A stretch of 64,000 nt of DNA from Deltaproteobacteria bacterium UBA4427 (GTDB lineage Bacteria > Myxococcota_A > UBA9160 > UBA4427): contig DGPZ01000195.1 in the NCBI GenBank assembly GCA_002390675.1, positions 67,095 through 131,094 on the forward strand, given 5' to 3'. How positions within the stretch are numbered: position 1 is the first letter of the stretch; every line of letters begins with the position of its first letter. This document shows positions 2,384 to 55,371 of this stretch, piece by piece. The notes beneath the pieces were generated by a model. The model ran no database searches and was not told the origin of the DNA. It saw nothing but the letters and a program-made list of their open reading frames with translations. A program made the translations under genes and the position numbers.

Positions 2384-3652
2384 CTAACAACAGCCGAGTT
2401 CGCGGCCCAATTCTAGTGCAGTCTTGGACTGGTGCAGGTCTTCTAGCGCACGTCGCTCGATCTGTCGGATGCGTTCTCGGCTGACCCCAATGCGATCTCC
2501 TATTTGCGCAAGCGACGCGGGTTCTTCGCCGTTAAGACCAAAACGGGCTCTAATGACCAACTTCGCACGGTCATCGAGGATGGGAAGCATTTCTTCCACT
2601 CGTCGGCCAATAGCTTCGTTGTCGAATTTTGCGTCGGGATCGGGGTCGGACTCCGCTGCAAAAGTGTCCTCGATTGTGAGGTTTTCGGTTCCGCCCACAA
2701 TACTGTGACTCGAAATTTCGGGACTTAAGCTGCGTCTAAGATCATCTCCCAGTGAGTCGTCGAGCCCCATGATTTCGATCAGATCGAATGGGGTGGGTTC
2801 CGAGGAGGATGCAGTTCGATGCAACTCTTCAAGCCGTCGGAACGCTCGTTGCTGATCCTGAACCGGACTCGGGATTCGAATCGTTCGAGAGTCGTTTGCG
2901 ACTGCTCGTACGAGTGCTTGTTCGATCCACCAGATGGCGTAGGTGGAAAACTTATATCCACGCCGGAAGTCAAACTTCTCCACGGCTCGGATCAGCCCAA
3001 CATTGCCTTCTTGGATGAGATCGATAAATGCAACGCCTCGATTTCGGAAATCCTTGGCACAGACAACGACGAGCCGAAGATTATGCTGAATGAAGAGATT
3101 CTTCGAATCTGTCAGGCGAGCGAGTGCGTCGTTCGCGTCTCGAAGATGAGGTTGGTCCTCTAGAGGCAAGCGTCCGCTGTGTCTCCGGCTGGAAACATTG
3201 AGCTCTTCCTGGATGGCGAGAAGAATCGGAAGAGAGATATCCGAAGCCAAAATCTCTTGGGCAAGCGCTTTACGCTGGCCTCCGGATTTACCTTGTCTGG
3301 CTGCCGAAAGTCGCCGTAGGAGAACTTCCACCCGTCCCATGGCTGCATCGACTCGTTCGTTGATGTTCTTCGTCGTTCCATCGCGGTGAAACTTCGAAAG
3401 GGCCCCGGTGACAAGTCCGCGAGCACGGCGGTCGTTCCAGCGCTCCATCAGTCGTTGCGCGACATCTGGAATTTGAGCGAGTGCCTCGCGCAGACTGGCT
3501 TCCGCACCTTCCATATTTACGAAGAGGCGGTTTTGCTCCTCCGTCTCAAGAACGGGAGTGTCGTAAATATCGTCGAGGTAGCTTTGGAGGATCTGCCGGT
3601 CTCTGGGCTCGAGGTGGGCGGCTTGCGCTTCCGTAGGGTTCTTGGCGAACAT
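2384..3652 (-). CDS. RNA polymerase sigma factor, sigma-70 (RpoD/RpoS-like) family
   Basis: Region 2: DLIQEGNVGLIRAVEKFDFRRGYKFSTYAIWWIEQA. Region 4: LAQIGDRIGVSRERIRQIERRALEDL. The track start is TTG 3688; ATG 3652 (MFAKNPTE) has a GGAGA about 9 nt upstream and is preferred. Confidence 0.9.
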   Translation of the reverse strand: MFAKNPTEAQAAHLEPRDRQILQSYLDDIYDTPVLETEEQNRLFVNMEGAEASLREALAQIPDVAQRLMERWNDRRARGLVTGALSKFHRDGTTKNINERVDAAMGRVEVLLRRLSAARQGKSGGQRKALAQEILASDISLPILLAIQEELNVSSRRHSGRLPLEDQPHLRDANDALARLTDSKNLFIQHNLRLVVVCAKDFRNRGVAFIDLIQEGNVGLIRAVEKFDFRRGYKFSTYAIWWIEQALVRAVANDSRTIRIPSPVQDQQRAFRRLEELHRTASSSEPTPFDLIEIMGLDDSLGDDLRRSLSPEISSHSIVGGTENLTIEDTFAAESDPDPDAKFDNEAIGRRVEEMLPILDDRAKLVIRARFGLNGEEPASLAQIGDRIGVSRERIRQIERRALEDLHQSKTALELGRELGCC

Positions 3653-3676
3653 TTTTTCTGTCTCCGTGTTATCAGC

Positions 3677-3688
3677 TTGTCTAGACAA
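3677..3688. promoter_or_regulatory. perfect 12-bp palindrome TTGTCTAGACAA in the divergent sigma / MerR-like promoter region
   Basis: Read directly from the sequence. It lies 25 nt upstream of the preferred sigma-factor ATG, inside an AT-rich island in a roughly 60% GC window. Confidence 0.45.
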
Positions 3689-3728
3689 TGATACATATAT
3701 TTCGTCCTGTAAAGATAAAATCTGTACA

Positions 3729-3750
3729 TTGTCTAGATATTGTCTAAGTG
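3729..3750. promoter_or_regulatory. two tandem 11-bp direct repeats (TTGTCTAGATA / TTGTCTAAGTG), candidate MerR/LitR/CarH-type operator
   Basis: Exact 11-bp phasing. The reverse complements TATCTAGACAA and CACTTAGACAA both fit nAnnTnnACAn. A related site, CGGTCTAGATG, sits at 3782..3792 over the regulator start codon. Confidence 0.45.
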
Positions 3751-3789
3751 AATTAGTCCCCCGGGGAATTCTCGTTTTGTCCGGTCTAG

Positions 3790-4575
3790 ATGGCCCAGGA
3801 GAACTTCACACTGATGAACGAGGCCCTAGAGTCGGCACCTCTAATATCCGCACTGGGAGGGCGATCGATGAGCGATGAGCAAGACGGACAAGAACGGTTT
3901 CCCGTCCGCCTAGCCGCTCGGCTCTCAGGGATCGCGGCAGAGAGGATTCGCTCCCGGGAGACGCGTCACCATGCTGCCGTCTCGCCCGCTCGAAGCTGCG
4001 GAGAAGGAAGGCAGTATTCAGCCGCCGATCTAAAGCGGCTCCGACTGCTCGGGAGAGCGGTTGCGTCTGGTCGTCGTATTGGAGACATCGCGACGCTGGA
4101 TGATGCAGTATTGACGGACCTGTTAAGAGAAGGAACCGAGCACGATTGGGAGGCTGGGCTGATGCCGATCTCCTCCGAGCGTATGGCCACGGGAATTATT
4201 AGGTCTCTACTCCTTGATCGACTCGACTCAATCCGGAGTTCGGATGGCGTTGGACCTCGGATCATTTTCGCAACGCCGAGTGGTGAGCGCCGCGATCCGG
4301 GGCTTCTCGTCGCGAGCCTGGTCGTAGCAAGCAAAAGATCCGAGGTGGTATTCCGGGGCGCTGAAGTTCCCGTAGAAGACTTTAATCTCGCAGTGGAAGG
4401 AAGCCGAATAAACGTGTTTGATTTGGGGATAGTGACCGAAGATTCGATCGATGTAGCGGGCTGCTTTAGGAATGTTAAGCGAAGGCTCGACAAGCGAGCT
4501 GTTTTCGGGGGCGGGATACGAGGAAACGACTACGCGTCTACCCAGCAGCCATGGGTAAAGGGAGGAACATCATGA
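3790..4575 (+). CDS. MerR-family transcriptional regulator with a C-terminal B12-binding-like (LitR/CarH-like) domain lacking the His ligand
   Basis: HTH segment: FPVRLAARLSGIAAERIRSRETRHHAAVSPARSCGEGRQYSAADLKRLRLLGRAVASGRRIGDIATL. C-terminal Rossmann-like segment: PRIIFATPSGERRDPGLLVASLVVASKRSEVVFRGAEVP, with ExRxxG where ExHxxG is expected. The N-terminal start is uncertain (MNEAL or MSDEQ are possible). Confidence 0.7.
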   Translation: MAQENFTLMNEALESAPLISALGGRSMSDEQDGQERFPVRLAARLSGIAAERIRSRETRHHAAVSPARSCGEGRQYSAADLKRLRLLGRAVASGRRIGDIATLDDAVLTDLLREGTEHDWEAGLMPISSERMATGIIRSLLLDRLDSIRSSDGVGPRIIFATPSGERRDPGLLVASLVVASKRSEVVFRGAEVPVEDFNLAVEGSRINVFDLGIVTEDSIDVAGCFRNVKRRLDKRAVFGGGIRGNDYASTQQPWVKGGTS

Positions 4576-26922: not shown

Positions 26923-27630
26923 ATGATTCGATTCACCAAGGCCCTCGCGCTGGCCGCGACCCTCTTGGCCATACCGTCAATGGCATCCGCCCTAGGGATT
27001 GAACTGGTCGGCACAAATGGAAGTGGCGGTAGTGCTACTCTGGCCCCCGGCGGTACGATCACGTTCGACCTTCGCATGACCTTCACCGGAACGGAGCCCC
27101 AGATCTTCGGCCTCTCCGCCGACGTTACGGGTATGGACTTGGCGGACGCGACCGGCGTGCGCGACTTTGGCCTTCAACTTGCGGGCGGTACTTCCGTCAG
27201 TGAATCTCTTGGAACCGACCCGGCACCCGGAATTGTCCCCGTGCAAGGGGCGATCCAAAACAACAATGGTACGTCTCCAGTTGAACGATACAGCATTAAC
27301 CATCTCAGTCCGCAGGCCTATACAGTCAACATGTTCGACGGCATAACGGCCAGCGGCGCGGATGGCGACGGCTCCACCGACTACGGTATCGGTGGGACCT
27401 ACGTAACGGGTGGCGACATCCACTTTCAGGTCACGCTCCAAAACGTAGGTAACGGCTCCGCCGCTTCATCCCTCGCGAACCTGCAGTTCTCGCTTCTCGC
27501 TTTGGACTTCCAGGGCGGCACGATCGCCGCAACTGGTGACACCTTCGCGCTGACGGTCATCCCGGAGCCGGGCACCGCCCTGCTCATGGGTCTCGGTCTC
27601 GCTGGCCTGGCCACGGTTCGCCGACGCTAG
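26923..27630 (+). CDS. PEP-CTERM sorting-domain secreted protein
   Basis: N-terminal signal peptide. C terminus VIPEPGTALLMGLGLAGLATVRRR is a PEP motif plus TM plus basic tail. Confidence 0.85.
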   Translation: MIRFTKALALAATLLAIPSMASALGIELVGTNGSGGSATLAPGGTITFDLRMTFTGTEPQIFGLSADVTGMDLADATGVRDFGLQLAGGTSVSESLGTDPAPGIVPVQGAIQNNNGTSPVERYSINHLSPQAYTVNMFDGITASGADGDGSTDYGIGGTYVTGGDIHFQVTLQNVGNGSAASSLANLQFSLLALDFQGGTIAATGDTFALTVIPEPGTALLMGLGLAGLATVRRR

Positions 27631-27712
27631 ACCTGACTGGCACGGCAGACGGGCACGGGATCCATTTCGGCTTCTGTAACTGTAATAGAGCCCGAGCCCG
27701 TCAAAAAACGAA

Positions 27713-27742
27713 GGGCCGCTTTCTCGCAAGAGAAAGCGGCCC
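27713..27742. terminator. bidirectional intrinsic terminator hairpin
   Basis: GGGCCGCTTTCTC-GCAA-GAGAAAGCGGCCC forms a 13-bp perfect stem. It is followed by TTTCGCGTTT on the + strand and TTCGTTTTTT on the - strand. It lies between the convergent PEP-CTERM and UGSC genes. Confidence 0.75.
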
Positions 27743-27835
27743 TTTCGCGTTTGGGGCTTCGGGCAGTCCGGGGCGCTGCCACGGGAGTTCCGGGGCTGCT
27801 CAGGAATTTTGGTTTTGGGCGGGGGCGAGGGCGAA

Positions 27836-28363
27836 CTAACGCAGCTGTTCGAGGATCGCGTCCAATGCCGCGTCTGCCCATGAATCCAGGGTTGCGCCGG
27901 GTGTGCCGCCGATCGGGTGCGGGACGATGATTCGGCGCGCATCAGGAAAGAGTAGCTCCCTCGCCATCTGATCTGCGAGATCGCGAAAGGCTTCGCTCGC
28001 GACGACGACGGTGGCTACGCCTCGGGCTTCAAGGGATTTGGTGTCGTGGAGACTCCACGACGTGCAGCTCCCTCAATCCGCGGTACCCGTAAGGACGACC
28101 TCGACTTCTTTGGCGAGGCGATCGATTAGCTCGGTCTCACAGGGCGTGGCGGCGGTCTGCTTGCGGAAGCAGCCAACGTAAATTCCATCCGTCTTCTTGG
28201 CGAGCTCTACGCCCATCCTGCCTAATAGGTGATCCGCGCCTGCCTTCCCGTTGTCGAGGACGCCAATACGAAGACCTACGAGCTCTTTGATAGAGGTTCG
28301 CGGCGTGCATTCGAGGAGTGCGTCCGTATGTCCCTCGGGAGAGTAGATCAAGGTTGACGACAT
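27836..28363 (-). CDS. UGSC-motif selenoprotein candidate (175 aa, Sec at codon 97 encoded by in-frame TGA 28075..28073)
   Basis: Track ORF 28073..28489 stops at a TGA. Codon-by-codon translation shows the frame stays open 78 more codons to TAG 27838..27836. The context is VVLTGTAD-U-GSCTSWSLHD. A stem-loop lies 11 nt downstream, and a paralog at 49978..50541 has the TGA at the same aligned position. ATG 28363 (MSSTLIYSPEGH) is the preferred start. Confidence 0.8.
28043..28061 (-). promoter_or_regulatory. SECIS-like stem-loop downstream of UGA (locus 1)
   Basis: The mRNA reads UGA-GGGAGCUGCAC-GUCGUGGA-GUC-UCCACGAC: an 8-bp stem and a GU-containing apical loop, starting 11 nt after the UGA. 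Confidence 0.55.
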
Positions 28364-28431
28364 GCTTTGGTCTCTTTCTTCGCCCACGCGCCGGGTGCCG
28401 ATGCCCGGGACGGGGAGGATGTAGCGCCCTG

Positions 28432-29553
28432 TTAGGGCTCTAGGGGCAGAGTGGCGCTTTCGGTCATGCCCCAGCTCGGCATTACGCAAGAGTGTTTTCC
28501 AGCACCGCCTACAACCATCACTTTGATGAGGTCGCGATCGCGCATGATCGGCTTCATGCCGTCATCCGGGAGCGCATCTTCCCATTCAGCGTATTGAGTG
28601 ACTTCGAAGGCGCGCCGGAATCGCGACATGGGAAGCCGCGCGTGTTCGAAGAGAAAATCCTGCACGTCTTTTCGTGAAAAGCCGCCGGCTGCGATTGCCT
28701 CGGCGTGCTCGGGGCCGAGAAAGACGAACCATTCGGCACTCGAGACCGGAGCATTATTCGAGCCAAGGGTCAGCATCGTGCTCGCGATTTGCTCGAGCGT
28801 ATGAATCGGCGAGCGAACATCGTGATCCTGGACGTTATGCGGATTCTCACCGCAAGCGACGGTGACAGCGCTCGGCGCTCGAAGGCCAAGGCTTTCCGGA
28901 TAGCTTTCCCAGGGGCTCTCGGCGCAATTCTCGGCGGCGCAGTAGCTGTATTTCGAGGGCTGTCCTTGAGTGGCGGCATCGCCGGCTCCTGGGCGCGCGC
29001 CCGCGATGTTCATGAGGACGAGTCTAAGCGCTCGGCCGACGGAGGCATTCGCGCGACAGCCGGGGCCGAAGGCGCCTAGCCCGGCATTGAAGCCGAGCTC
29101 GTCCGTCGCGGCGCCATGAACCAGGATGAGCGGAGCCACCGGATGAGTCGTCGCGTTGATGCCGCGAAGATTGATTTCCGGGAAGGCGAGTCCGCGGACG
29201 GCGGTCGTGAGAACTGGGAGCATGTTGGGGCGACAGCCAGCCATTACGGCGTTGACTGCGAGGAGTCGTCGCGTGACGAGTCCGCCGCGGGGCGGCAGGA
29301 CTGCGACGACTGCATCAGGATCAATCTGCCGGGGCAGTTTTTCGAGGAAGGCTTCGACCCGAGCCTCGGTCGGAGGCACGAGGGGAAGGCCGTCCCCCCA
29401 GCCCCGTGTGTCGGCGAGATCCATCCACGCCTCGAAATCACCTTCGGGAATTTTAACGTCCGGCGAGACCCGCGCCGATTCGAAGGATTCGAGAGTCGCA
29501 CCCGGGAGGGCGCAAACGTCGTCCTCACATTCGATTTCGACCGAATCGGCCAT
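28432..29553 (-). CDS. uncharacterised conserved protein, partner of the UGSC gene (paralog of 50588..51589)
   Basis: 373 aa from ATG 29553 (AAGGAGA RBS; the track start is 29580). Shares the blocks WGDGLPLVPPT, AVMAGCRP and GPGCRANASVGRALRLV with the 333-aa protein at 50588..51589. I could not assign a domain. Confidence 0.8.
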   Translation of the reverse strand: MADSVEIECEDDVCALPGATLESFESARVSPDVKIPEGDFEAWMDLADTRGWGDGLPLVPPTEARVEAFLEKLPRQIDPDAVVAVLPPRGGLVTRRLLAVNAVMAGCRPNMLPVLTTAVRGLAFPEINLRGINATTHPVAPLILVHGAATDELGFNAGLGAFGPGCRANASVGRALRLVLMNIAGARPGAGDAATQGQPSKYSYCAAENCAESPWESYPESLGLRAPSAVTVACGENPHNVQDHDVRSPIHTLEQIASTMLTLGSNNAPVSSAEWFVFLGPEHAEAIAAGGFSRKDVQDFLFEHARLPMSRFRRAFEVTQYAEWEDALPDDGMKPIMRDRDLIKVMVVGGAGKHSCVMPSWGMTESATLPLEP

Positions 29554-29585
29554 GCCATCTCCTTGGTCGACTATGTGCATGCGGA

Positions 29586-43837: not shown

Positions 43838-45652
43838 TTAGGGAATTTGAAGCTCATCGAGTTTCGCCTGGGGAACGACGCCGTTCTTCCAGCCGCGGAC
43901 GTCGTAGTATTCGACAAGCATCTGGTCGAGTTCAGAAACATGGCCCTTGGAGCCGGAGAGCGTTGAAGCTTCCTCGGTGAAGCGCTTTGGCAAGGTGTCG
44001 CTGCCTTCGCCGAAGCCAGCCAAGTTGTTGTAGTAGCGCTCGAGATTGTAGACGCGCTCCCCCGCCTGCATGACGTCTTCGGCGGTGCACTCAATCCCCA
44101 TGGCGCCGCTCCACTGAGCAGCATACTCGTCCGCGCCCTGCGCGAATGCGCTGAACTTGCAGAGGTCTAGGCTGTCGGAGAAGGCTGCGAGGTCCTGGAA
44201 AATCATGACTAGTTCGCCTTTGCCTCTCCATTCAAGCGGGTCCGCTTCGATGCCAACCACTCCGAGTTCCGCTGCTGCGACATACGCGCGCAGATGGCAG
44301 GCGCCGCGATTACTCGTCGCATAACCCAGTCCCATACCCTTGAGTCCCCGGGGGTCATAGGCCGCAACCGCTTGGCCCTTGCAGGCCATCGCCGCTTCGG
44401 GACGTCCGAAATTCTGAGCCGTGATGACGGCCCCGTCTGCGAGCTTGTCCCCGATGCCTTCTCGGAGCGCGAGCTTTTCAGTCAGCGCCACCATGGCCGC
44501 ATCGTCGCCCCAATCGAGCGATTCCCCGTTAGTTAGGCCTTTTTCGGTGCACTCCATGAAGACGGAATAGACATTGCCGAGTTCGATCGGGTCGAGGCCG
44601 TAGTCGTTGCACTGATCGATCAGCTTCGCGACCGAGCGAATATCATCGACGTCGCAATTCGAGCCCAGCGCCCAGGCCGGCTCGTATTCGACACTTTCCA
44701 TCTTTAGGCCTTTCCACGGGCCGTCTTTGATCTCGACTTCCTTCTTACAGGCGACGGGGCAGGCGTGACACGTCGGGTTTCCTACAAGGATATTTTCCTC
44801 GACGTATTCGCCGGAGAGGGACTCTGCGCGCTCGCCGAAGGAAGTGAGCTGGCTATTCCGGACGCCTAACGCGCCGATACTATTAGTGACGTTCATGAGC
44901 ACATTCGTGCCGTAGACCGAAAGCCCTCCTTTTTTGGGGCTCGTGATATTTTTCTCGTCGCGGATTGTGTTGAGTGCCAATTTTCGAGCGGCTTGCCAGG
45001 CATCCTTGTCCGGGACATCGCTCTTCTTGTTGGCTGCGCGAACGATGATCGCCTTGAGGTTCTTGCTACCACCGACGGCACCGGTGCCGCCGCGACCAAA
45101 GGCTCGATCATCTTCGTTGACCCAAGCGGCGAAGCGGGAGAGATTTTCGCCGGCCTGGCCGATGGCGTTGATGGAGAGATTCTTTTTTCCGTAGCGTTCC
45201 TGATAGAAGGCAACAGTTTCATGGATGCCCATGCCCCAGGTGTCACTGGCATCACGAATCGAAATTTCGCCGTCTTCGATGAACACATAGACGGGTGCAT
45301 CGGCTCGACCTTCAAAAATAAGGCCATCGAATCCAGCCCAGCGGACCCGTGCCGCGCTCCAGCCACCCTGATGGCTATCCGTCACCGTATTCGTGAGCGG
45401 ACTCTTGGTGACCGCGGCCCATCGGCCACTCATGCTCATCTCGCTTCCGGAGAGCGGGCCGTTCATGAAGCAGAGGATATTTTCCGGGGAGAGCGGCTCG
45501 ACGTTGGGGCCGTTCTCAAGGACATAACGTACACCGAGCCCGCGTGCGCCGATATATTTCTCAACCCACTCGGGCGGGGCGGGACGATTCTCGACGGTTC
45601 CCTCGGAGAGATTGATATGAGCGATGTCGCGTCCAAAGGTCCTGGCGTCCAT
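43838..45652 (-). CDS. aldehyde:ferredoxin oxidoreductase family (tungsto/molybdopterin) enzyme
   Basis: 604 aa from ATG 45652 (AGGAGA RBS). N-terminal AOR domain IAHINLSEGTVENRP...GARGLG, and 4Fe-4S ligands CHACPVAC. Confidence 0.9.
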   Translation of the reverse strand: MDARTFGRDIAHINLSEGTVENRPAPPEWVEKYIGARGLGVRYVLENGPNVEPLSPENILCFMNGPLSGSEMSMSGRWAAVTKSPLTNTVTDSHQGGWSAARVRWAGFDGLIFEGRADAPVYVFIEDGEISIRDASDTWGMGIHETVAFYQERYGKKNLSINAIGQAGENLSRFAAWVNEDDRAFGRGGTGAVGGSKNLKAIIVRAANKKSDVPDKDAWQAARKLALNTIRDEKNITSPKKGGLSVYGTNVLMNVTNSIGALGVRNSQLTSFGERAESLSGEYVEENILVGNPTCHACPVACKKEVEIKDGPWKGLKMESVEYEPAWALGSNCDVDDIRSVAKLIDQCNDYGLDPIELGNVYSVFMECTEKGLTNGESLDWGDDAAMVALTEKLALREGIGDKLADGAVITAQNFGRPEAAMACKGQAVAAYDPRGLKGMGLGYATSNRGACHLRAYVAAAELGVVGIEADPLEWRGKGELVMIFQDLAAFSDSLDLCKFSAFAQGADEYAAQWSGAMGIECTAEDVMQAGERVYNLERYYNNLAGFGEGSDTLPKRFTEEASTLSGSKGHVSELDQMLVEYYDVRGWKNGVVPQAKLDELQIP

Positions 45653-45769
45653 GATTCGATGATCTCCTAATGGGATTGACTGAAAAGCGAAACAGGATCC
45701 CGCCAAAGGGCTCCGGTCCTCTATTCTAGACCGATCGAGTGGCATTCCGGAAGTCAATCCGCAGGGAGT

Positions 45770-46141
45770 TTGGGTGTGGGCAGCAGAGATCTGAGAGATG
45801 GACCTGAGGCAGCGTTCGCAGCCTATCTCAAGCGCCATGCATCCAACGATCTGGAGGGCGTCCTTGAGTTATTCTCAGCCTCCGCCGTGGTCGAAGATCC
45901 CGTGGGCACGCCGGCCTGGACGGGTCTTGCGGCAATCCGGTCCTTCTATTCGGGGACTTATCTCCGGAACGGGACTATGCGGGTCGATCCAGTAGGCCCA
46001 GCGCTCGTCGGCGGCTTTGAGTTAGTGGCACACGTGCGTGCTGCGTTGGACGCGCCGGGGAGTCCTCCGGCGATGGACGTAATTTATGTCATTCGTTTTG
46101 CTGCGGATGGGAAAATCGAAAGTCTCCGGGCCTGGTATTAA
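45770..46141 (+). CDS. SnoaL / ketosteroid-isomerase-like (NTF2 fold) protein
   Basis: 123 aa. The pattern AAFAAYLKRHASNDLEGVLELFSASAVVEDPVG fits this fold. Confidence 0.65.
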   Translation: MGVGSRDLRDGPEAAFAAYLKRHASNDLEGVLELFSASAVVEDPVGTPAWTGLAAIRSFYSGTYLRNGTMRVDPVGPALVGGFELVAHVRAALDAPGSPPAMDVIYVIRFAADGKIESLRAWY

Positions 46142-48879: not shown

Positions 48880-49677
48880 CTAACGGCACGAGTACCCGCC
48901 GTCGACCGGAAGCGTGTGTCCCGTGATGAAGGACGCGGCATCGCTCGATAGGAATACCGCTGCCGTTGCGATTTCATCCGCTTGGCCGAGACGGCCCATC
49001 GGATGGAGCTGCTCGTATTCGTGCTGGACCTGCAGATCCTCGCGCAACAATGAGGTCATAGGCGTTTCGATATAGCCGGGGGCGACGGCGTTTACGCGAA
49101 CGCCAAGCTTGGCGTACGAAATCGCGAACTGAGCTGTCATGCCGACGACAGCATGCTTTGACGCGATATAAGCGATGCCCCCGCCTTCGGTCATAGAAGC
49201 GGGGCCCCCTTCGGAATGGTCGGAAAGAGGTGAGACGAGGCCTTGCAGGCCGGCGATCGAGGCGGTGTTGACGATCGCGCCTCCGCCACGCTCCGCCAAG
49301 AGAGTCGCTCCGTGCTTGAGGCCGTAGTAGACGCCGTTCTGGTTGACTTCGATGGTCTGTTGATAGTCGTCGCCGCCGACGCCCGCATTATTGAAGAGGA
49401 TGTCGAACCCACCGAGGGCGTCGATGGTTTGTATGAGGCTTTTTTCGACCGCGCTTTCGTCGGTCACGTCGAGTCCTAGGGAAGCGGCGTTCCCGCCGTC
49501 GGCAAGGATCGACTCGCTTGTTTGTTTCGCGCCGTCGGCGTCGATGTCCGCGCACATGACGCGGGCTCCGGCTTCGGCATAACGGCGCGCGGCCGCACGG
49601 CCAATACCGGAGGCCGCTCCTGTGACGAGGGCGACGCGGTCGGTGAGATCTATGGTCGGAGATGGGATTGGCATCAT
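48880..49677 (-). CDS. SDR-family oxidoreductase
   Basis: TGAASGIGRA, NNAG, and YIASKHAVVGMT. The start overlaps the NifU-like gene's stop by 4 nt. Confidence 0.9.
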   Translation of the reverse strand: MMPIPSPTIDLTDRVALVTGAASGIGRAAARRYAEAGARVMCADIDADGAKQTSESILADGGNAASLGLDVTDESAVEKSLIQTIDALGGFDILFNNAGVGGDDYQQTIEVNQNGVYYGLKHGATLLAERGGGAIVNTASIAGLQGLVSPLSDHSEGGPASMTEGGGIAYIASKHAVVGMTAQFAISYAKLGVRVNAVAPGYIETPMTSLLREDLQVQHEYEQLHPMGRLGQADEIATAAVFLSSDAASFITGHTLPVDGGYSCR

Positions 49678-49919
49678 GATTCCTTTTCAGTTTCGACTTC
49701 GACGCGCAATACGTCGTCGCTCAGTCCTTTGAGCATGTCATGCATCATGGCGCCGAGTGCTTCCGGCTCCATCACGCACTCCGCGCATTCTTCGTTCACT
49801 CCAGGTCGATAGCTCACGCGCAGCACACCGCCGTCGAATTCGCAGAGACGAACCTGTCCGCCATCGGGTTTAACGATCTCGTTGAATTGCTCGACAACTT
49901 GTTGCACGGCTTCTGACAT
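49674..49919 (-). CDS. NifU-like (C-terminal-domain type) CxxC protein
   Basis: 81 aa. The layout ...PDGGQVRLCEFDGGVLRVSYRPGVNEECAECVMEPEALGAMMHDML resembles the Nfu/NifU C-domain with its CxxC. Confidence 0.65.
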   Translation of the reverse strand: MSEAVQQVVEQFNEIVKPDGGQVRLCEFDGGVLRVSYRPGVNEECAECVMEPEALGAMMHDMLKGLSDDVLRVEVETEKES

Positions 49920-49977
49920 GGCTCTTCCTATATTTTATTTCGAGCTCGGAGCAATGGTAGACGGAGTTTCTGGAGGT

Positions 49978-50541
49978 TCAGCTCGTCAGACGGGCACGCA
50001 CTTTGGGAGCAACCTCTCGTGCCAGATCGCGAATTTCATCTTGATTCCAGATGGCTGTCGGAATGGCCGGGTAGTCGATCAGGATGAACTCAAAATCAGG
50101 CACTCCCGATAGTCGAGCCATCGCTTGGGCAGAGCCCTCGACGGCTTTGTGGATGATGGCGGCGGTCGGAATACCCGCCCACTCGAGCTCGATCGCGTCG
50201 CGCAAACTGCGCGCAGAGCAGCTGCCTCAACCCCCGAAGCCGGCGATTGCCAGCGAGGTCTCCGAGGTGAGCCGAGCCCAATCCGGTCCCTCTGGCGCGA
50301 CGGAGACACTCGGCTTCAGCACACGCACCGCGGCGAGGGTGTCGTCTGCGCTCGTGAGCTCCCCGTACACGGCGTCGAGGAAGGACTTGGATTCACCGAG
50401 TCCATTGGCCACGAGGCCGAGTACATGCCCCGAAAGCGAAGCGACGCGGGCGGGAAGCGCCCGGTCGTCTTTGCGCTCGAGGGGGCCGCTCGTAGGATCG
50501 AGGGCGATCAGTGTTTTTTCGTCCATGGCTAATTCCTTCAT
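49978..50541 (-). CDS. UGSC-motif selenoprotein candidate, second copy (in-frame TGA 50229..50227)
   Basis: Track ORFs 50227..50541 and 49978..50205 are the same frame separated only by a TGA. Joined, they read ...SLAIAGFGG-U-GSCSARSLRDAIELEW... A stem-loop lies 13 nt after the UGA. ATG 50526 (AAGGAA RBS) may be the true start. Confidence 0.8.
50199..50213 (-). promoter_or_regulatory. SECIS-like stem-loop downstream of UGA (locus 2)
   Basis: The mRNA reads UGA-GGCAGCUGCUCUG-CGCGCA-GUU-UGCGCG: a 6-bp GC-rich stem and a GU-containing triloop. Confidence 0.5.
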
Positions 50542-50587
50542 GAAGTTGACGGAAATATTGGCTTTCCGGCGACGGCTAATGTGCGTA

Positions 50588-51589
50588 TTAGTTCGGTACG
50601 TCGATCGCTTCTGTTATGGCGACAGCGAGGTGTGGCAACAAGACCCAAGTCTGAGCCATGCCGTCGCCGCCGGCCGCAGCAATCAGAATTCCGTCCTTGC
50701 GCGGGATCCCGACGATTCGTCCAGTCGGCCCCGGGTCTTCTGCGAACCGGGGGAAGAGGTAGTCGCGCATGTCTTCTTTTGACCAACCGGCACGGTCGAA
50801 ATAGCGGCGATGTTCTGGGCCGACGACGAGCATCACGTTGGCGTCGTCGCCGACGAAGTCGTCCCCTGCAATTCCGTTCTGCCTAAGAGTGTGGAGCATC
50901 GAATCGAGCAGGGCTTCCGGGGTGCGGGAGGTGAAGTCGATCGTCGAGGTCACGGTCATGACGGAGTGAACAGTGACTGTGCTCTGAGCAAGTTGATAGC
51001 CACGTTCGACGTGGAGAGGCGTCCAGTCGCTCTCTTCTTCGTTCTCACCAAAACAGAAGCTGAAGCGATGGGGACTCGAAAAACTTGCGCGGTCCAGTAC
51101 ACCGGGGATGGCGCGACACACGTTGCGAATCACGAGGCGGAGTGCGCGTCCGATTGTGGCGTTGGCGCGGAAGCCCGGGCCCATGCATCCAGCACCGCAT
51201 TCGATGCCAATTCTCGTTCTAATGGGGCCATTGACTAACACGGTCTGTACTGCACCGGACAGCGTGCCGGTCGTGCTATGGCAGTTACCCTTCTCGTGGA
51301 GGTGCGCGCGAAGGGCGGCCACGACGACGGGGAAAAATTCGGGGCGGCAACCCGCCATCACTGCATTAATGGCGGCGTGTTCAGCCGTGACCCGAACTTC
51401 GCGGGTTGGGACTTCACCCAGGAGGAGATCTGGGGCCAGGCCCGCTTCCGCGAGGAAGGCTTCGACGCGATCCGGCGTAGGGGCGACGATCGGGAGACCG
51501 TCGGTCCAACCCTGTGCGTGGTACTGCTCTTGGAGATCTTCTTCGCTGCGGTAGCTATGGCTGGGTGCAGCGAGTGTGGTTGATGACAT
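50588..51589 (-). CDS. uncharacterised conserved protein, partner of the UGSC gene (paralog of 28432..29553)
   Basis: 333 aa with a GGAGGG RBS. Carries the blocks WTDGLPIVAPT, AVMAGCRP and GPGFRANATIGRALRLV, shared with the locus-1 partner. Confidence 0.8.
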   Translation of the reverse strand: MSSTTLAAPSHSYRSEEDLQEQYHAQGWTDGLPIVAPTPDRVEAFLAEAGLAPDLLLGEVPTREVRVTAEHAAINAVMAGCRPEFFPVVVAALRAHLHEKGNCHSTTGTLSGAVQTVLVNGPIRTRIGIECGAGCMGPGFRANATIGRALRLVIRNVCRAIPGVLDRASFSSPHRFSFCFGENEEESDWTPLHVERGYQLAQSTVTVHSVMTVTSTIDFTSRTPEALLDSMLHTLRQNGIAGDDFVGDDANVMLVVGPEHRRYFDRAGWSKEDMRDYLFPRFAEDPGPTGRIVGIPRKDGILIAAAGGDGMAQTWVLLPHLAVAITEAIDVPN

Positions 51590-51678: not shown

Positions 51679-53130
51679 GTGCGACGATTCGGTACTAAGA
51701 CCGTATCCCGCGGTGCCGGAGCCCTAGTGATCTCATTAAGTGCGTTTACGAGCCGATTTCTGTTTTTGATGGCTTTCGGATCGCTTCTGTTTATTTTCGG
51801 AGGCTGCGCAATGCTCGCTCAGTCGGGCGACGAGGATGAGATGTTGAAGGGGGCCGCAGCCGATGAAGTGGACCCCGCGATCTACACAGCGATCAATGAC
51901 CCAAACGATCCCTACGGCTATAAATACGCTGAATTCAGGGAGCGCCGCGAACGCGACATGGCGGATCCTGATTCGCCGCGGCCCCTTCCGCGCTACGGCG
52001 CGCGTCATCAAACGACGGGGACGCCATGGGGCGATTTGGAAAATCTGTTCCCAATCGATTGGGACGGGCTTCGAGAGTCGACACCGAAGCGTGTCGAGCA
52101 GCTTAAAGGCGCGATGCGCTTGCGGGTGGCCTTCGATCATCCCGATCTCAAAATCAGTCAGCTGGTGCTTGGACCAGAGGCCGTCCTGCCGGGGCATGCC
52201 GATGGCGCCCCGGGTGCGTATATCGTGATCTCGGGGCGCGGAGAGATTCGTGTCGGGAGCGAAAACGCTCGCGTGACGACGGGATCTACAGTGAAGCTCG
52301 AGCCTTATGTCGTGCGAAGTTTGAAAGCCTCGGCGGAGGAACCTCTTCGTTTGTTGTGGATCCGTTGGGCTCCGGGAGGCGACCAGTCGTATGTTGATGC
52401 TGGCTACTACCTAACAGGCGCGAATCAGCATATTCAGCCCGAGCAGGCGAAATTCGAAGACGGCTATCTTTTCTGGGGCGGAGTGGATGAGGCCTATGGT
52501 CCCGTCGAAACTGCTGTGAACCCCACGCCTTCGGGAGCGGTTCCGGTATACGCTGATGCGGCGGTCGGTCTTCGCGCAGCGAAAGCGACCTTCAATGCGA
52601 ATGAGCCGCTCTATCCCGGCGTTTCCGTGTTTGCGCACGACAGCAAAATTTCTTGGCTTTCGGCCGAGACTCTTAAGAAGGGCGGATTCTTTTTCTCGGA
52701 TGATCTTGGCTCGCTCTTGGACGTCGCGGAGCAGATGATTCAGATCGCGCGTCACAAGGCGATTTTTCGAGCAAGCCGGCCCGATGGGCGTTGGGATTTT
52801 AACTTCTCTGAATCTGCGTGGGGCGCGCGGTCGACCTATGTCGAACATAGTCACGTGATTCCCGAATTCTACTATGTGTTAAGCGGCCCCGTAATCTACG
52901 GAGTCGATGGCGAACGGTATGAGAGCATGCCTGGCGATATCCTTTTCAATAATAGCTACTCGCCGCATCTCGCCCAGGGGATCGTTGAGGGCCTCGTCTT
53001 TCGTTCCTTCTCGTCGACCTTCGCGCCGAATGGCGACCGAAGTGTCTTTGAACGCCCCTATTTCATGATCGAGCCTCTGACCGATCAAGCTGCGGGATCG
53101 GTGCTTCCCGACGGCATCGAGTTCCACTGA
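51679..53130 (+). CDS. bicupin lipoprotein
   Basis: Lipobox LLFIFGGC. Two cupin-like cores: LPGHADGAPGAYIVISGRGEIRVG and HSHVIPEFYYVLSGPVIYGVDGERYESMPGDILF. Confidence 0.7.
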   Translation: MRRFGTKTVSRGAGALVISLSAFTSRFLFLMAFGSLLFIFGGCAMLAQSGDEDEMLKGAAADEVDPAIYTAINDPNDPYGYKYAEFRERRERDMADPDSPRPLPRYGARHQTTGTPWGDLENLFPIDWDGLRESTPKRVEQLKGAMRLRVAFDHPDLKISQLVLGPEAVLPGHADGAPGAYIVISGRGEIRVGSENARVTTGSTVKLEPYVVRSLKASAEEPLRLLWIRWAPGGDQSYVDAGYYLTGANQHIQPEQAKFEDGYLFWGGVDEAYGPVETAVNPTPSGAVPVYADAAVGLRAAKATFNANEPLYPGVSVFAHDSKISWLSAETLKKGGFFFSDDLGSLLDVAEQMIQIARHKAIFRASRPDGRWDFNFSESAWGARSTYVEHSHVIPEFYYVLSGPVIYGVDGERYESMPGDILFNNSYSPHLAQGIVEGLVFRSFSSTFAPNGDRSVFERPYFMIEPLTDQAAGSVLPDGIEFH

Positions 53131-53166
53131 TACGTAGACTCATTCGCGAAAAGGCCAGATCTCTCG

Positions 53167-54066
53167 ATGAACCGCTTACCGACCACAGTAGATGGACTCC
53201 GGAAAGTACTTGCGGGCTTCGCAACCCGTGAGGGCATGCTCGCGGGGCTTTCGTTTCGGCCGCGGCCGACGGACGTGTTCATAGCTACCTTCGCGAAAAG
53301 CGGAACGACGCTCTTGCAGCAGATCGTGCATGGGCTGCGCACGGGGGGCGATATGGACTTCGAAGACATCTCGGAAGTCGTTCCTTGGATTGAGATGGCC
53401 GTCGATACAGGGATCGATGCGACGGCTTCACAGCGCGCCGAGCCGCGTGCCTTCAAGACCCATCTCGACTGGGGTGCTTTGCCGAAGGGAGGCCGCGCGA
53501 TTTGGGTTGTCCGAGATCCTGAATCCGTGATCGTCTCGCATTACCACTTCTTTTCGGGCTGGTTTTTCGAACCCGGCAGTATTGGGTTTGAAGAGTTCGC
53601 GCTGGACTTCGTTCTGTCCCGCGATGGCCGACATCAGTATTGGGATCACCTCGTCTCGTGGTGGGCGCACAAGGACGATCCCGAGGTGCTGCCACTTTGC
53701 TATGAGACGGTGGTCGAGGATCTTGCTGTTGCGGTTCAACAAGTGAGCGATTTCTTGGATCTTGCTTGCGATGAACAGAGAATCGAACTTGCGACGCGCC
53801 AAGCTGAGCTCGATTTTATGAAGGGGTACCCGACGCTCTGGGAGGATGTTCTTCTTAGGAGGCACCGTAACTCCGCGATGAACCTGCCAGAGGGTGCAGG
53901 CAGCACGAAGGTTCGCGAGGGAAAAACCTTGGGGCCCCGGGCCGAGATGACGCCAGCGGTTCGAGAGGCGTGGACGTCGCGATGGAACGAAATCGTGACT
54001 CCGGCCACGGGATGCGAGGACTACCCGGCTCTTCGGCGGGCGATGAAAAGCTCTACTGAGAGCTAG
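53167..54066 (+). CDS. sulfotransferase-domain protein
   Basis: PAPS loop ATFAKSGTTLLQQIV, followed by KTHL and the RDP...VS region. Confidence 0.85.
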   Translation: MNRLPTTVDGLRKVLAGFATREGMLAGLSFRPRPTDVFIATFAKSGTTLLQQIVHGLRTGGDMDFEDISEVVPWIEMAVDTGIDATASQRAEPRAFKTHLDWGALPKGGRAIWVVRDPESVIVSHYHFFSGWFFEPGSIGFEEFALDFVLSRDGRHQYWDHLVSWWAHKDDPEVLPLCYETVVEDLAVAVQQVSDFLDLACDEQRIELATRQAELDFMKGYPTLWEDVLLRRHRNSAMNLPEGAGSTKVREGKTLGPRAEMTPAVREAWTSRWNEIVTPATGCEDYPALRRAMKSSTES

Positions 54067-54102
54067 TCGAAGCGTCTATGCTCACGCTTTCCCTGAGCCG
54101 GA

Positions 54103-55371
54103 GTGTTCTTGTCCCCGAATTCGAATGATGACCCAAATCCCTCCGAGACGGAGGTGTCCGCAAGTGGGACGGCGCAAGCAATAGCGACCTTTCGGTTGCC
54201 GCATTACGGGATGCTCTGGTCCTCGAACCTAATCCAGTTCATTTGTTTCCACGTGCTCTTCTTGGCGATGCAGTGGTTGGTGACCTCGCTAACCGATCTG
54301 CGCATAGCGGTGGGCTTCTTAGCGTTCGTGCAAGGCGGAACAATCGCGCTCGCATCGCCCTTTGCAGGCGTGATCGTCGATCGCCATCCAAAGCGGAACC
54401 TAATGATCTTTGGCCGACTAGGTGTCGCCGTGGTTGCAATATCCATGGGACTTCTGTCCTACGGCGGTTTGATCGAATACTGGCATCTGCTGGTGATGGC
54501 GATCGTTGGGGGCACCTTAGCGGCGCTCTTAGGCCCGGCGGCGCAGACCTATGTCGTGGACGTTGTGGGCCGCAAACGAACCGATCACGCAATTTCGCTG
54601 AACGCGATCGGAGGCTCCGTCGGGACGATAGGCGGCGCCGCGCTTGCAGGGCTTTTGATCAAGGAACTTGGTGTCGTGTCGACGTATTTCGCGGCCGCGG
54701 CCGGCGTCGTTCTGGCGGGACTATTGCTGCTTACGATCCCCATTCCGGGGCATGCCGAACGGAAGGAGCGCACCTCGCTGCGATCAGATCTGGTTGAGGG
54801 CCTCGCATATGTTAGGGCACGCCCGCATCTGCTATTGGCGCTCGCGGCTTGTGCGATGGCGCTCTTCAATGGAGCGATCAGCCCGATGCGGGTGATCTAT
54901 GCTCGGCATGTCTTTGGGGCGGGTGCGGATGCGTTCGGCATGATGTCCGTGTTTCACGGAGGCGGCACCATGCTCGCGGCTCTTTTCCTGACGCTGCGGC
55001 CGCCGAGTCGAAATTTCGGCGTGCTGATCACAGGGACTATGCTGCTCTACGCGCTCGGCGTCCTGATGTATTCCTTCGCGTTCTCGTTCGAATACATCCT
55101 GGCAGTCGAGTTCTGGCTCGGCATTTCCGGGCAGGCGTGGCATATATGCGCACTGATCGGGTTCCAGCTCGCGGTCCCCGAGGAAATGCGGGGCCGCGTA
55201 TTGAGTATGGTGTTCACCCTCGCTCAGCTTGGCTTTGTGGGGGGATTCATAGTAGGTGGCCTGGCTGACCAGCTCGGCGATCAGGTTGCAGTTGGCGTAT
55301 TTGGAGCGATTCCAACGATCCTGCTCTCCTGCATGCTGGTCTTTGGATGGAAGAGCTTGCGCAAGATGTGA
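54103..55371 (+). CDS. MFS transporter
   Basis: About 12 TM helices, with a D-R-x-x-K-R-like loop (VDRHPKRNL) between TM2 and TM3. Confidence 0.85.
   Translation: MFLSPNSNDDPNPSETEVSASGTAQAIATFRLPHYGMLWSSNLIQFICFHVLFLAMQWLVTSLTDLRIAVGFLAFVQGGTIALASPFAGVIVDRHPKRNLMIFGRLGVAVVAISMGLLSYGGLIEYWHLLVMAIVGGTLAALLGPAAQTYVVDVVGRKRTDHAISLNAIGGSVGTIGGAALAGLLIKELGVVSTYFAAAAGVVLAGLLLLTIPIPGHAERKERTSLRSDLVEGLAYVRARPHLLLALAACAMALFNGAISPMRVIYARHVFGAGADAFGMMSVFHGGGTMLAALFLTLRPPSRNFGVLITGTMLLYALGVLMYSFAFSFEYILAVEFWLGISGQAWHICALIGFQLAVPEEMRGRVLSMVFTLAQLGFVGGFIVGGLADQLGDQVAVGVFGAIPTILLSCMLVFGWKSLRKM

Follow-up and report, generated by a model that had tools for sequence, protein, structure and literature searches.

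UGSC (Pfam PF24696, NCBIfam NF041046) was first reported in 2007-2008, from symbionts of Olavius and from Global Ocean Sampling (GOS) metagenomes (PMC1976440, PMC2398784), and is an accepted selenoprotein family of unknown function (PMC2398784, PMC13188914). It ranks with the selenoprotein families of highest abundance in the GOS samples (PMC1976440, PMC2398784, PMC9312934, PMC13188914), and its function was still unassigned in a 2026 review (PMC2398784, PMC9312934, PMC13188914). Among cultured bacteria, Hyphomonas neptunium is reported to carry UGSC (PMC1976440). The published accounts describe the family on its own and guess at a thioredoxin-like fold (PMC2398784); no conserved partner and no dedicated Nfu-like protein are described in the open-access papers that mention UGSC, and the sole possible hint of a partner in these papers is a "UGSC/Unknown_1 fusion" from 2008, the alignment of which is available only as an image. 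We analyzed a 64,000-nucleotide (nt) stretch of contig DGPZ01000195.1 from Deltaproteobacteria bacterium UBA4427 (hereinafter, the window), in which a UGSC gene is the second of four tightly packed genes on the minus strand, preceded by a gene for a protein of 333 amino acids (aa) that has no family in Pfam or NCBIfam, which we call the partner, and followed by genes for a small Nfu-like protein and a short-chain dehydrogenase/reductase (SDR). The UGSC gene of the window shares with its family a full-length Pfam match, a TGA-coded U-G-S-C motif with a selenocysteine insertion sequence (SECIS)-like hairpin, and homologs with Cys, and departs from the published accounts in its predicted flavodoxin-like fold and its near-obligate, unannotated partner. 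UGSC itself is already known; what is added here is the conserved partner and the dedicated Nfu-like gene. The partner and UGSC genes make up a conserved two-gene module, extended here to three genes by the Nfu-like gene, which is located in a variable catabolic island of a marine Myxococcota genome. We consider it fairly probable that this module encodes a selenol/thiol enzyme of two subunits, for which the Nfu-like accessory protein is optional.

Among the described systems, the closest functional analogy of the pair is with the selenoprotein B-type reductases PrdB/PrdA and GrdB/GrdE, in which the larger subunit, the one without selenocysteine (Sec), binds the substrate. As in these systems, a small Sec subunit with a U-x-x-C motif (for the PrdB motif, see PMC2398784, Table 2) is encoded beside a larger non-Sec subunit, and the genomic contexts of the pair likewise often involve catabolism of amino acids or organic acids. 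However, sequence similarity is lacking, with no match to PF07355 (GRDB) at E <= 0.01; there are no genes for GrdA, GrdC, GrdD or thioredoxin adjacent to the pair; and, unlike the pyruvoyl subunits of the Prd and Grd systems, the partner has no conserved precursor Cys. A pyruvoyl-type partner was considered and dropped (motif NCHSTTG; the candidate residue, C103, is present in 11% of 107 family members). Because both homology and a conserved pyruvoyl-precursor Cys are lacking, the pair does not qualify as a member of the GrdB/PrdB type. Judging from the taxon names, the lineages that host the pair are, to our knowledge, mostly not strict anaerobic fermenters.

The third gene invites comparison with the Nfu/NifU C-terminal carriers (plant CnfU, NfuA and human NFU1), which its product resembles in the length of the domain, the DGG motif and the position of the CxxC. 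In contrast to these carriers, the proteins of this subfamily are stand-alone (76-108 aa), show a distinct signature, CxxC[VIL][MIVL]xx[EDRQ], score at or below the Pfam gathering threshold, and are linked with UGSC/partner loci and not with isc, suf or nif genes.

The UGSC selenoprotein and its partner

Along the minus strand, the genes for the partner (333 aa; 50588-51589), the UGSC-family selenoprotein (187 codons with read-through of the TGA; 49978-50541), the Nfu-type protein (81 aa; 49674-49919) and the SDR (265 aa; 48880-49677) are separated by 46 nt, 58 nt and a 4-nt ATGA start/stop overlap, the latter between the Nfu-like and SDR genes. Re-examination of the arrangement given in the original prediction found the coordinates, gaps, overlap and motifs to be correct; the family labels were likewise upheld, and the 333-aa protein had no family in Pfam or NCBIfam. 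Shine-Dalgarno-like sequences precede the partner gene (GGAGG, 9 nt before the ATG), the Nfu-like gene (AGGAAG) and the SDR gene (AAGGA). For UGSC, two in-frame ATG codons, five codons apart, are available at 50541 and 50526; only the second has AAGGA, 8 nt upstream, and it fits the N-termini of the homologs. The second ATG may be the true start, which would widen the first gap to 61 nt, a shift of 15 nt. A scan of the gaps between the four genes detected no terminator-like and no sigma-70-like sites, with the caveat that the sigma-70 consensus may not fit this phylum.

The UGSC protein of the window scores 131.1 bits against PF24696 (gathering score 25; positions 3-171 of 172) and 86.3 bits against NF041046, under the 125-bit equivalog cut-off; by these profile scores, it is a member of the family at the Pfam level and of a divergent subfamily by the NCBIfam measure. 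The in-frame TGA at 50227-50229 is predicted to be read as Sec in the context ...AIAGFGG-U-GSCSARSLRD..., with the Cys of homologs aligned at U; FGGCGSC is invariant among the 22 full-length Cys homologs. A SECIS-like hairpin (50185-50225, minus strand) has a core stem, CGCGCA/UGCGCG, with a GUU apical loop; this core is at 50199-50213, 16 nt past the U of the UGA. Both UGSC genes of the window, this one and that of a second partner-UGSC pair on the minus strand (locus 1; 27836-29580), have the hairpin in the same register after the TGA, with a stem that begins 14-16 nt after the U and a GU[UC] apical loop at nt 23-25. Among the orthologs, the stem occurs in the variants GCGCGCA/UGCGCG, GCCCGCA/UGCGGG and GCACGCA/UGCGUG, the compensatory changes falling on synonymous positions of the conserved S-A-R-S-L-R-D codons, and the hairpin is degraded in two of the three Cys-encoding relatives. 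The fold energy of the GC-rich copy at 50185-50225 is no better than that of shuffled sequences (z = +1.7 to +2.2), that of locus 1 alone being significant. At the codon for U, 26 of the 32 motif-matched UGSC genes in related loci have TGA and the other six TGC or TGT. Judged by the TGA together with the SECIS-like hairpin, the UGSC gene is a true Sec gene.

An AlphaFold2 (AF2) model of a 61%-identical Cys homolog (pLDDT 91) has a five-strand parallel alpha/beta/alpha architecture of the flavodoxin-like type, in which the Sec position maps to the end of strand beta-3 and the N-terminus of the next helix. Its best matches in the PDB are generic (TIR, flavodoxin-like and vWA domains), and the top 50 include none with a thioredoxin fold; the thioredoxin-like fold guessed in 2008 is therefore unsupported. 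A phosphatase/ArsC-like U-X5-R loop was also considered; it suits subfamily 2 (UGSCSAR) but not subfamily 1 (UGSCTSW) and was dropped.

The partner has at least 7893 homologs, all of them unnamed or annotated as "hypothetical" and without a Pfam domain; the best database match, 99% identical, comes from a Myxococcota metagenome-assembled genome. The family is characterized by the motifs GWTDGLPxVxPT, AxNAVMAGC(81), GPGxRANxxIGRALRL and FC(179)FGENEE, in which C81 (AVMAGC) and C179 (FCFGENEE) are the only Cys residues conserved family-wide; Asp30, Asn75, Arg141, Arg148, Asp166 and Glu182 are conserved as well. Searches of Pfam and NCBIfam returned no family, only a single spurious match to ComJ (E = 0.008), and a profile search of the PDB sequences gave nothing under E = 0.36. 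For the AF2 model of the partner (pLDDT 83), the Foldseek candidates from the PDB, namely class I fumarate hydratase, cis-aconitate decarboxylase, Toblerone-fold amidohydrolases and YjgF, have TM-scores of at most 0.33 and were rejected as a basis for functional assignment.

A scan with the partner of one genome per GTDB species yielded 80 loci (designated by L numbers below, as are the additional loci) with 88 partner genes, from Dehalococcoidia, Acidimicrobiia, Binatia, Rokubacteria/Methylomirabilota, Poribacteria, Alpha-, Beta-, Gamma- and "Delta"-proteobacteria, Spirochaetes and others. A same-strand UGSC gene lies within 400 nt of the partner in 72 of the 88 cases, downstream in 55 and upstream in 17, with a median of 99 nt between the hit ends; ten partner genes lack a same-strand UGSC in the locus. 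When the UGSC-less loci were searched again with a hidden Markov model, eight contained no UGSC at all and one (L080) had it on the opposite strand. The eight of the 80 loci that contain partner genes but no UGSC within 10 kb indicate that a UGSC-independent branch of the partner family exists. A 2152-nt Chloroflexota contig (L009) carries three tandem paralogs of the partner family at 11-2150, with no UGSC between them. A partner-UGSC fusion was looked for in the most closely spaced loci (L001, L061, L064 and L086; gaps of 3-10 nt), all of which proved to have separate genes in different frames.

The pairwise identities of the partner and UGSC proteins are strongly correlated (r = 0.85; none of 500 Mantel permutations as high). 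Within the window, the partner of locus 1 is about 32-35% identical to that of the four-gene stretch and the two UGSC proteins are 23% identical, compared with 64% and 59%, respectively, between the pair of the four-gene stretch and a pair from Dehalococcoidia; in general, a pair is much closer to pairs in other phyla than to its paralogous pair in the same genome. These comparisons of identity therefore show that, in many phyla, partner and UGSC are passed on, duplicate and move together as one unit.

The surroundings of the pair are far less constant. Its 119 immediate neighbors span 156 Pfam families, the commonest being MFS (8), thiolase (7), AlaDH (4) and IMPDH-like (3), and include no universal third gene; the families that recur in the neighborhood are CoA-transferases, thiolases, acyl-CoA dehydrogenases, amidohydrolases, cytochromes P450, Rieske oxygenases, and transporters of the MFS and TTT types. 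The suggestion that the core pair is retained alongside changing accessory genes is borne out by the comparison of loci.

The Nfu-like gene and candidate functions of the module

The 81-aa protein, with C45 and C48 in the context ...NEECAECVM..., scores 26.4 bits against PF01106, just under the gathering score of 27, and seven of eight members of its subfamily match this Pfam family at E <= 0.1. A profile of the subfamily, which is small (231 database matches), matches the solved CnfU/Nfu domains 2z51, 2jnv, 1xhj, 1veh and 2m5o, with a best E-value of 2.6e-7; C45 and C48 are invariant across the subfamily and align with the cluster-binding CxxC of 2z51. By profile comparison, the gene is predicted to encode an Nfu-type domain.

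In all Myxococcota relatives examined (L081-L086), the Nfu-like gene directly follows UGSC. It adjoins the pair in only three of the 80 species loci, which are unrelated and from other phyla; L006 has the order Nfu-partner-UGSC, while L008 and L063 show UGSC-partner-Nfu. The gene was not found elsewhere in the approximately 1.1 Mb of DNA flanking the species loci. Approached from the Nfu side, by look-up of six proteins (11 loci, L087-L097), both UGSC and the partner are adjacent in all cases. A scan of metagenomes with closely related Nfu sequences gave 17 loci, and UGSC is adjacent in the 16 that include upstream sequence. Of the 26 loci retrieved from the Nfu side, UGSC adjoins the Nfu-like gene in 25, and the 26th stops short at its contig end. 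The partner is present wherever the contig of an Nfu-subfamily locus reaches it, in fragmented form in L094. In this locus (3162-4447), the partner is split into several short open reading frames (ORFs), through pseudogenization or an assembly error, and UGSC is still called, along with an N-terminally extended Nfu-like ORF of 148 aa. The other neighbors of the Nfu-like gene are inconstant and include genes for Rieske, GGDEF-EAL, alpha/beta-hydrolase and fatty-acid hydroxylase proteins and a transposase. An ORF of 82-83 aa without a Pfam match comes right after the Nfu-like gene in L095-L097 (4250-4498) and L083 (6936-7187); the ORFs of these two sets are not obviously similar to each other.

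Genomic context identifies the Nfu-like protein as a dedicated yet optional third component of the module; its gene is missing from 77 of the 80 diverse pair loci and is therefore dispensable. The proposal that the Nfu-like and SDR genes might co-occur with the core pair therefore divides: in all Nfu-subfamily loci with upstream sequence, the Nfu-like gene is found beside UGSC, whereas the SDR gene shows no enrichment and is variable in position or absent.

In the reading that we favor, the partner and UGSC would form a two-subunit enzyme. The partner would be the substrate-binding subunit, with C81, C179 and the conserved Arg, Asp, Asn and Glu residues, and UGSC would provide a redox-active or nucleophilic U-x-x-C selenenylsulfide center, probably recycled by general cellular thiol reductants. 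In the minority of lineages that have it, the Nfu-like CxxC protein could act as a dedicated thiol relay or as an Fe-S or metal carrier for the module. The SDR would not be an electron donor to the selenoprotein but would act as a substrate-level dehydrogenase within the variable island around the module, which in the relatives includes genes for Rieske, P450, SDR, alpha/beta-hydrolase and APH proteins.

Several points weigh against this interpretation. For about 10% of the partner genes, UGSC is missing from the surrounding 10 kb, which means that the partner can work alone or with something else, and the absence of the Nfu-like gene from 77 of the 80 diverse loci implies that it is not essential to the chemistry of the module. 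The enzymatic role of the partner is a guess from conservation, given that the protein has no recognizable fold relative or cofactor motif, and co-transcription and physical interaction of the module components are only inferred. Furthermore, L058, L095-L097 and L107 have genes for unrelated SDRs directly upstream of the pair, and an SDR orthologous to that of the window lies within 0-3.5 kb of the trio in many close relatives; these placements leave room for a looser, pathway-level link of SDRs to the module.

Of the alternatives to the two-subunit selenol/thiol enzyme, the one that fares best, although we regard it as unlikely, is a metalloenzyme or Fe-S enzyme, in which the Nfu-type protein would deliver a cluster or metal that is ligated, at the subunit interface, by C81 and C179 of the partner and by the U and C of UGSC. 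Consistent with such a role, the CxxC of the 81-aa protein aligns with the one that binds the cluster in Nfu domains of known structure, the partner has exactly two Cys residues conserved family-wide, and UGSC has two chalcogen residues; the weak top Foldseek matches of the partner are, moreover, Fe-S-dependent class I fumarate hydratases. However, these matches are not significant (TM <= 0.33, E ~2e-3), the Nfu-like gene is absent in 77 of 80 loci, and a search for a Cys pattern specific to partners with an Nfu-like neighbor found none. Also to be counted against this alternative, the U-x-x-C motifs of other selenoproteins are redox centers, and we know of no natural Fe-S cluster with a Sec ligand. 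A related scheme, which we hold to be rather doubtful, is that UGSC, the partner and the Nfu-type protein constitute an unrecognized three-component selenoenzyme, in which the Nfu-like protein would either install an Fe-S or metal center that is partly ligated by Sec or shuttle redox equivalents to the U-x-x-C.

The SDR gene and the remaining alternatives

The SDR is a typical FabG-like classical enzyme in its TGxxxGxG (TGAASGIG) and YxxxK (YIASK) motifs, its catalytic Ser and its strong matches to Pfam (adh_short_C2, 186 bits; adh_short, 148 bits) and NCBIfam, in which it stays under every equivalog cut-off. It differs from classical SDRs by an insertion of about 20 residues (LVSPLSDHSEGGPASMTEGGG; window positions 49174-49239, residues ~147-168) between the catalytic Ser and the Tyr of YxxxK, which divides the Pfam match in two and is unusual among these enzymes.

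The arrangement of the four genes had been taken to suggest a single redox chain, from NAD(P)H through the SDR and a thiol/selenol relay (the CxxC of the Nfu-like protein and the U-x-x-C of UGSC) to the partner, and it is true that the four genes are tightly packed and that the SDR gene overlaps the Nfu-like gene by 4 nt. Because the SDR start overlaps the Nfu-like stop, the SDR gene is probably co-transcribed with the Nfu-like gene in this genome. The SDR placements in other genomes mentioned above, namely the orthologs 0-3.5 kb from the trio in close relatives and the unrelated SDRs immediately upstream of the pair in L058, L095-L097 and L107, can be cited in support of the chain as well; the latter agree with how common SDRs generally are in catabolic islands. 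SDR-like ORFs are, however, depleted near the pair in the 80 species loci (0.08-0.10 per 10 kb within 0.5-3 kb, compared with 0.21-0.28 per 10 kb farther away in the same loci), and the 25 commonest families of the 119 immediate neighbors do not include adh_short. In close relatives, the orthologs of the SDR (77-83% identity) are located 1.1-3.5 kb downstream; a Rieske gene comes between in L081, and an 83-aa ORF and a P450 gene on the opposite strand do so in L083 and L084. No ortholog is found in L082 and L086. The Nfu-like/SDR overlap itself occurs otherwise only in L098, which is 99% identical to the window, and so looks specific to the lineage of the window. An alignment of the junction indicates that the window is without the Rieske gene which, in L081, overlaps the stop codon of the Nfu-like gene, and that the ribosome-binding region of the SDR gene abuts this stop in its place. 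Adjacency to an SDR could easily arise by chance because the window alone contains three SDR-like ORFs with E-values below 1e-10 (a fourth, weaker match was detected by tblastn). Classical SDRs reduce or oxidize carbonyl/alcohol substrates, and we know of none that reduces disulfides or selenenylsulfides. Altogether, we see little chance that the four genes form one chain, and membership of the SDR in the system as the entry point of NAD(P)H has no support in these data; the gene is better described as a lineage-specific neighbor outside the module.

In close relatives, the slot after the Nfu-like gene is occupied by a Rieske gene (L081, 7850-8830) or a SnoaL-Rieske gene (L082, 7010-8416), the former with the same 4-nt ATGA overlap as the SDR gene of the window. 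This slot seems to be a hotspot for the exchange of oxidoreductase genes.

Virtually no credence can be given to the last alternative, that the TGA is a real stop and the apparent UGSC gene consists of two small ORFs or is a pseudogene, with no selenoprotein made: public records do split the gene into pieces of 99-107 aa and 76-77 aa, and tRNA and Rfam scans of the 64-kb window gave no match, with no tRNA-Sec or sel genes within it, but a single Pfam model spans both halves end to end, Cys-containing homologs run continuously, the hairpin after the TGA is kept in position with compensatory changes, the TGA is retained at this codon in 26 independent loci, and UGSC is already an accepted selenoprotein family (PMC2398784, PMC13188914).

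Other features of the window and implications

The second pair of the window, locus 1, comprises a paralog of the partner (28432-29580, minus strand; the true start is possibly downstream of 29580) and a UGSC selenoprotein gene (27836-28363, minus strand; TAD-U-GSC), in which an 8-bp hairpin with the loop GUC (z = -3.6) comes after the TGA at 28073-28075. The original prediction had placed this locus downstream of an amidohydrolase gene and before a strong terminator, and both were found, namely an Amidohydro_2 gene upstream of the core pair and a predicted intrinsic terminator at 27711-27744 (minus strand) with a 15-bp stem and a T-run. Just past the terminator, convergent to locus 1, is a gene for a PEP-CTERM-anchored secreted protein (26923-27630, plus strand).

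At 43838-45838 (minus strand), the window encodes a 666-aa aldehyde:ferredoxin oxidoreductase (AFOR_N and AFOR_C, E = 1e-123), beside a gene for a xylose-isomerase-like TIM-barrel protein; tungsten/molybdopterin enzymes of this kind are typically found in anaerobes and archaea. Divergent from the partner gene of the four-gene stretch and 89 nt away from it, genes for a double-cupin protein, a sulfotransferase and an MFS protein occupy 51679-55371 (plus strand). The double-cupin protein has a borderline match to the Pfam family DMSP_lyase (28.7 bits; gathering score 27). In L081 and L082, synteny with the trio extends to both the sulfotransferase and the MFS gene, and in L083 only to the latter.

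Natural trios in which Cys takes the place of Sec exist (L006, L008 and L087-L093) and, as they do not depend on the Sec machinery, could be produced in Escherichia coli for use in pull-downs, metal analysis and screens for substrates. The comparisons described here remove a misleading lead, the SDR as an electron donor, and provide a handle on the function of UGSC, in the form of one specific, unannotated companion of about 330 aa across many phyla, along with an Nfu-type CxxC protein in some lineages. Should the three-component selenoenzyme prove true, one of the ocean's most abundant selenoprotein families would for the first time have a defined catalytic partner and a chemistry that can be tested. 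The long-open function of UGSC thus becomes approachable by experiment, chiefly via the natural all-Cys trios.

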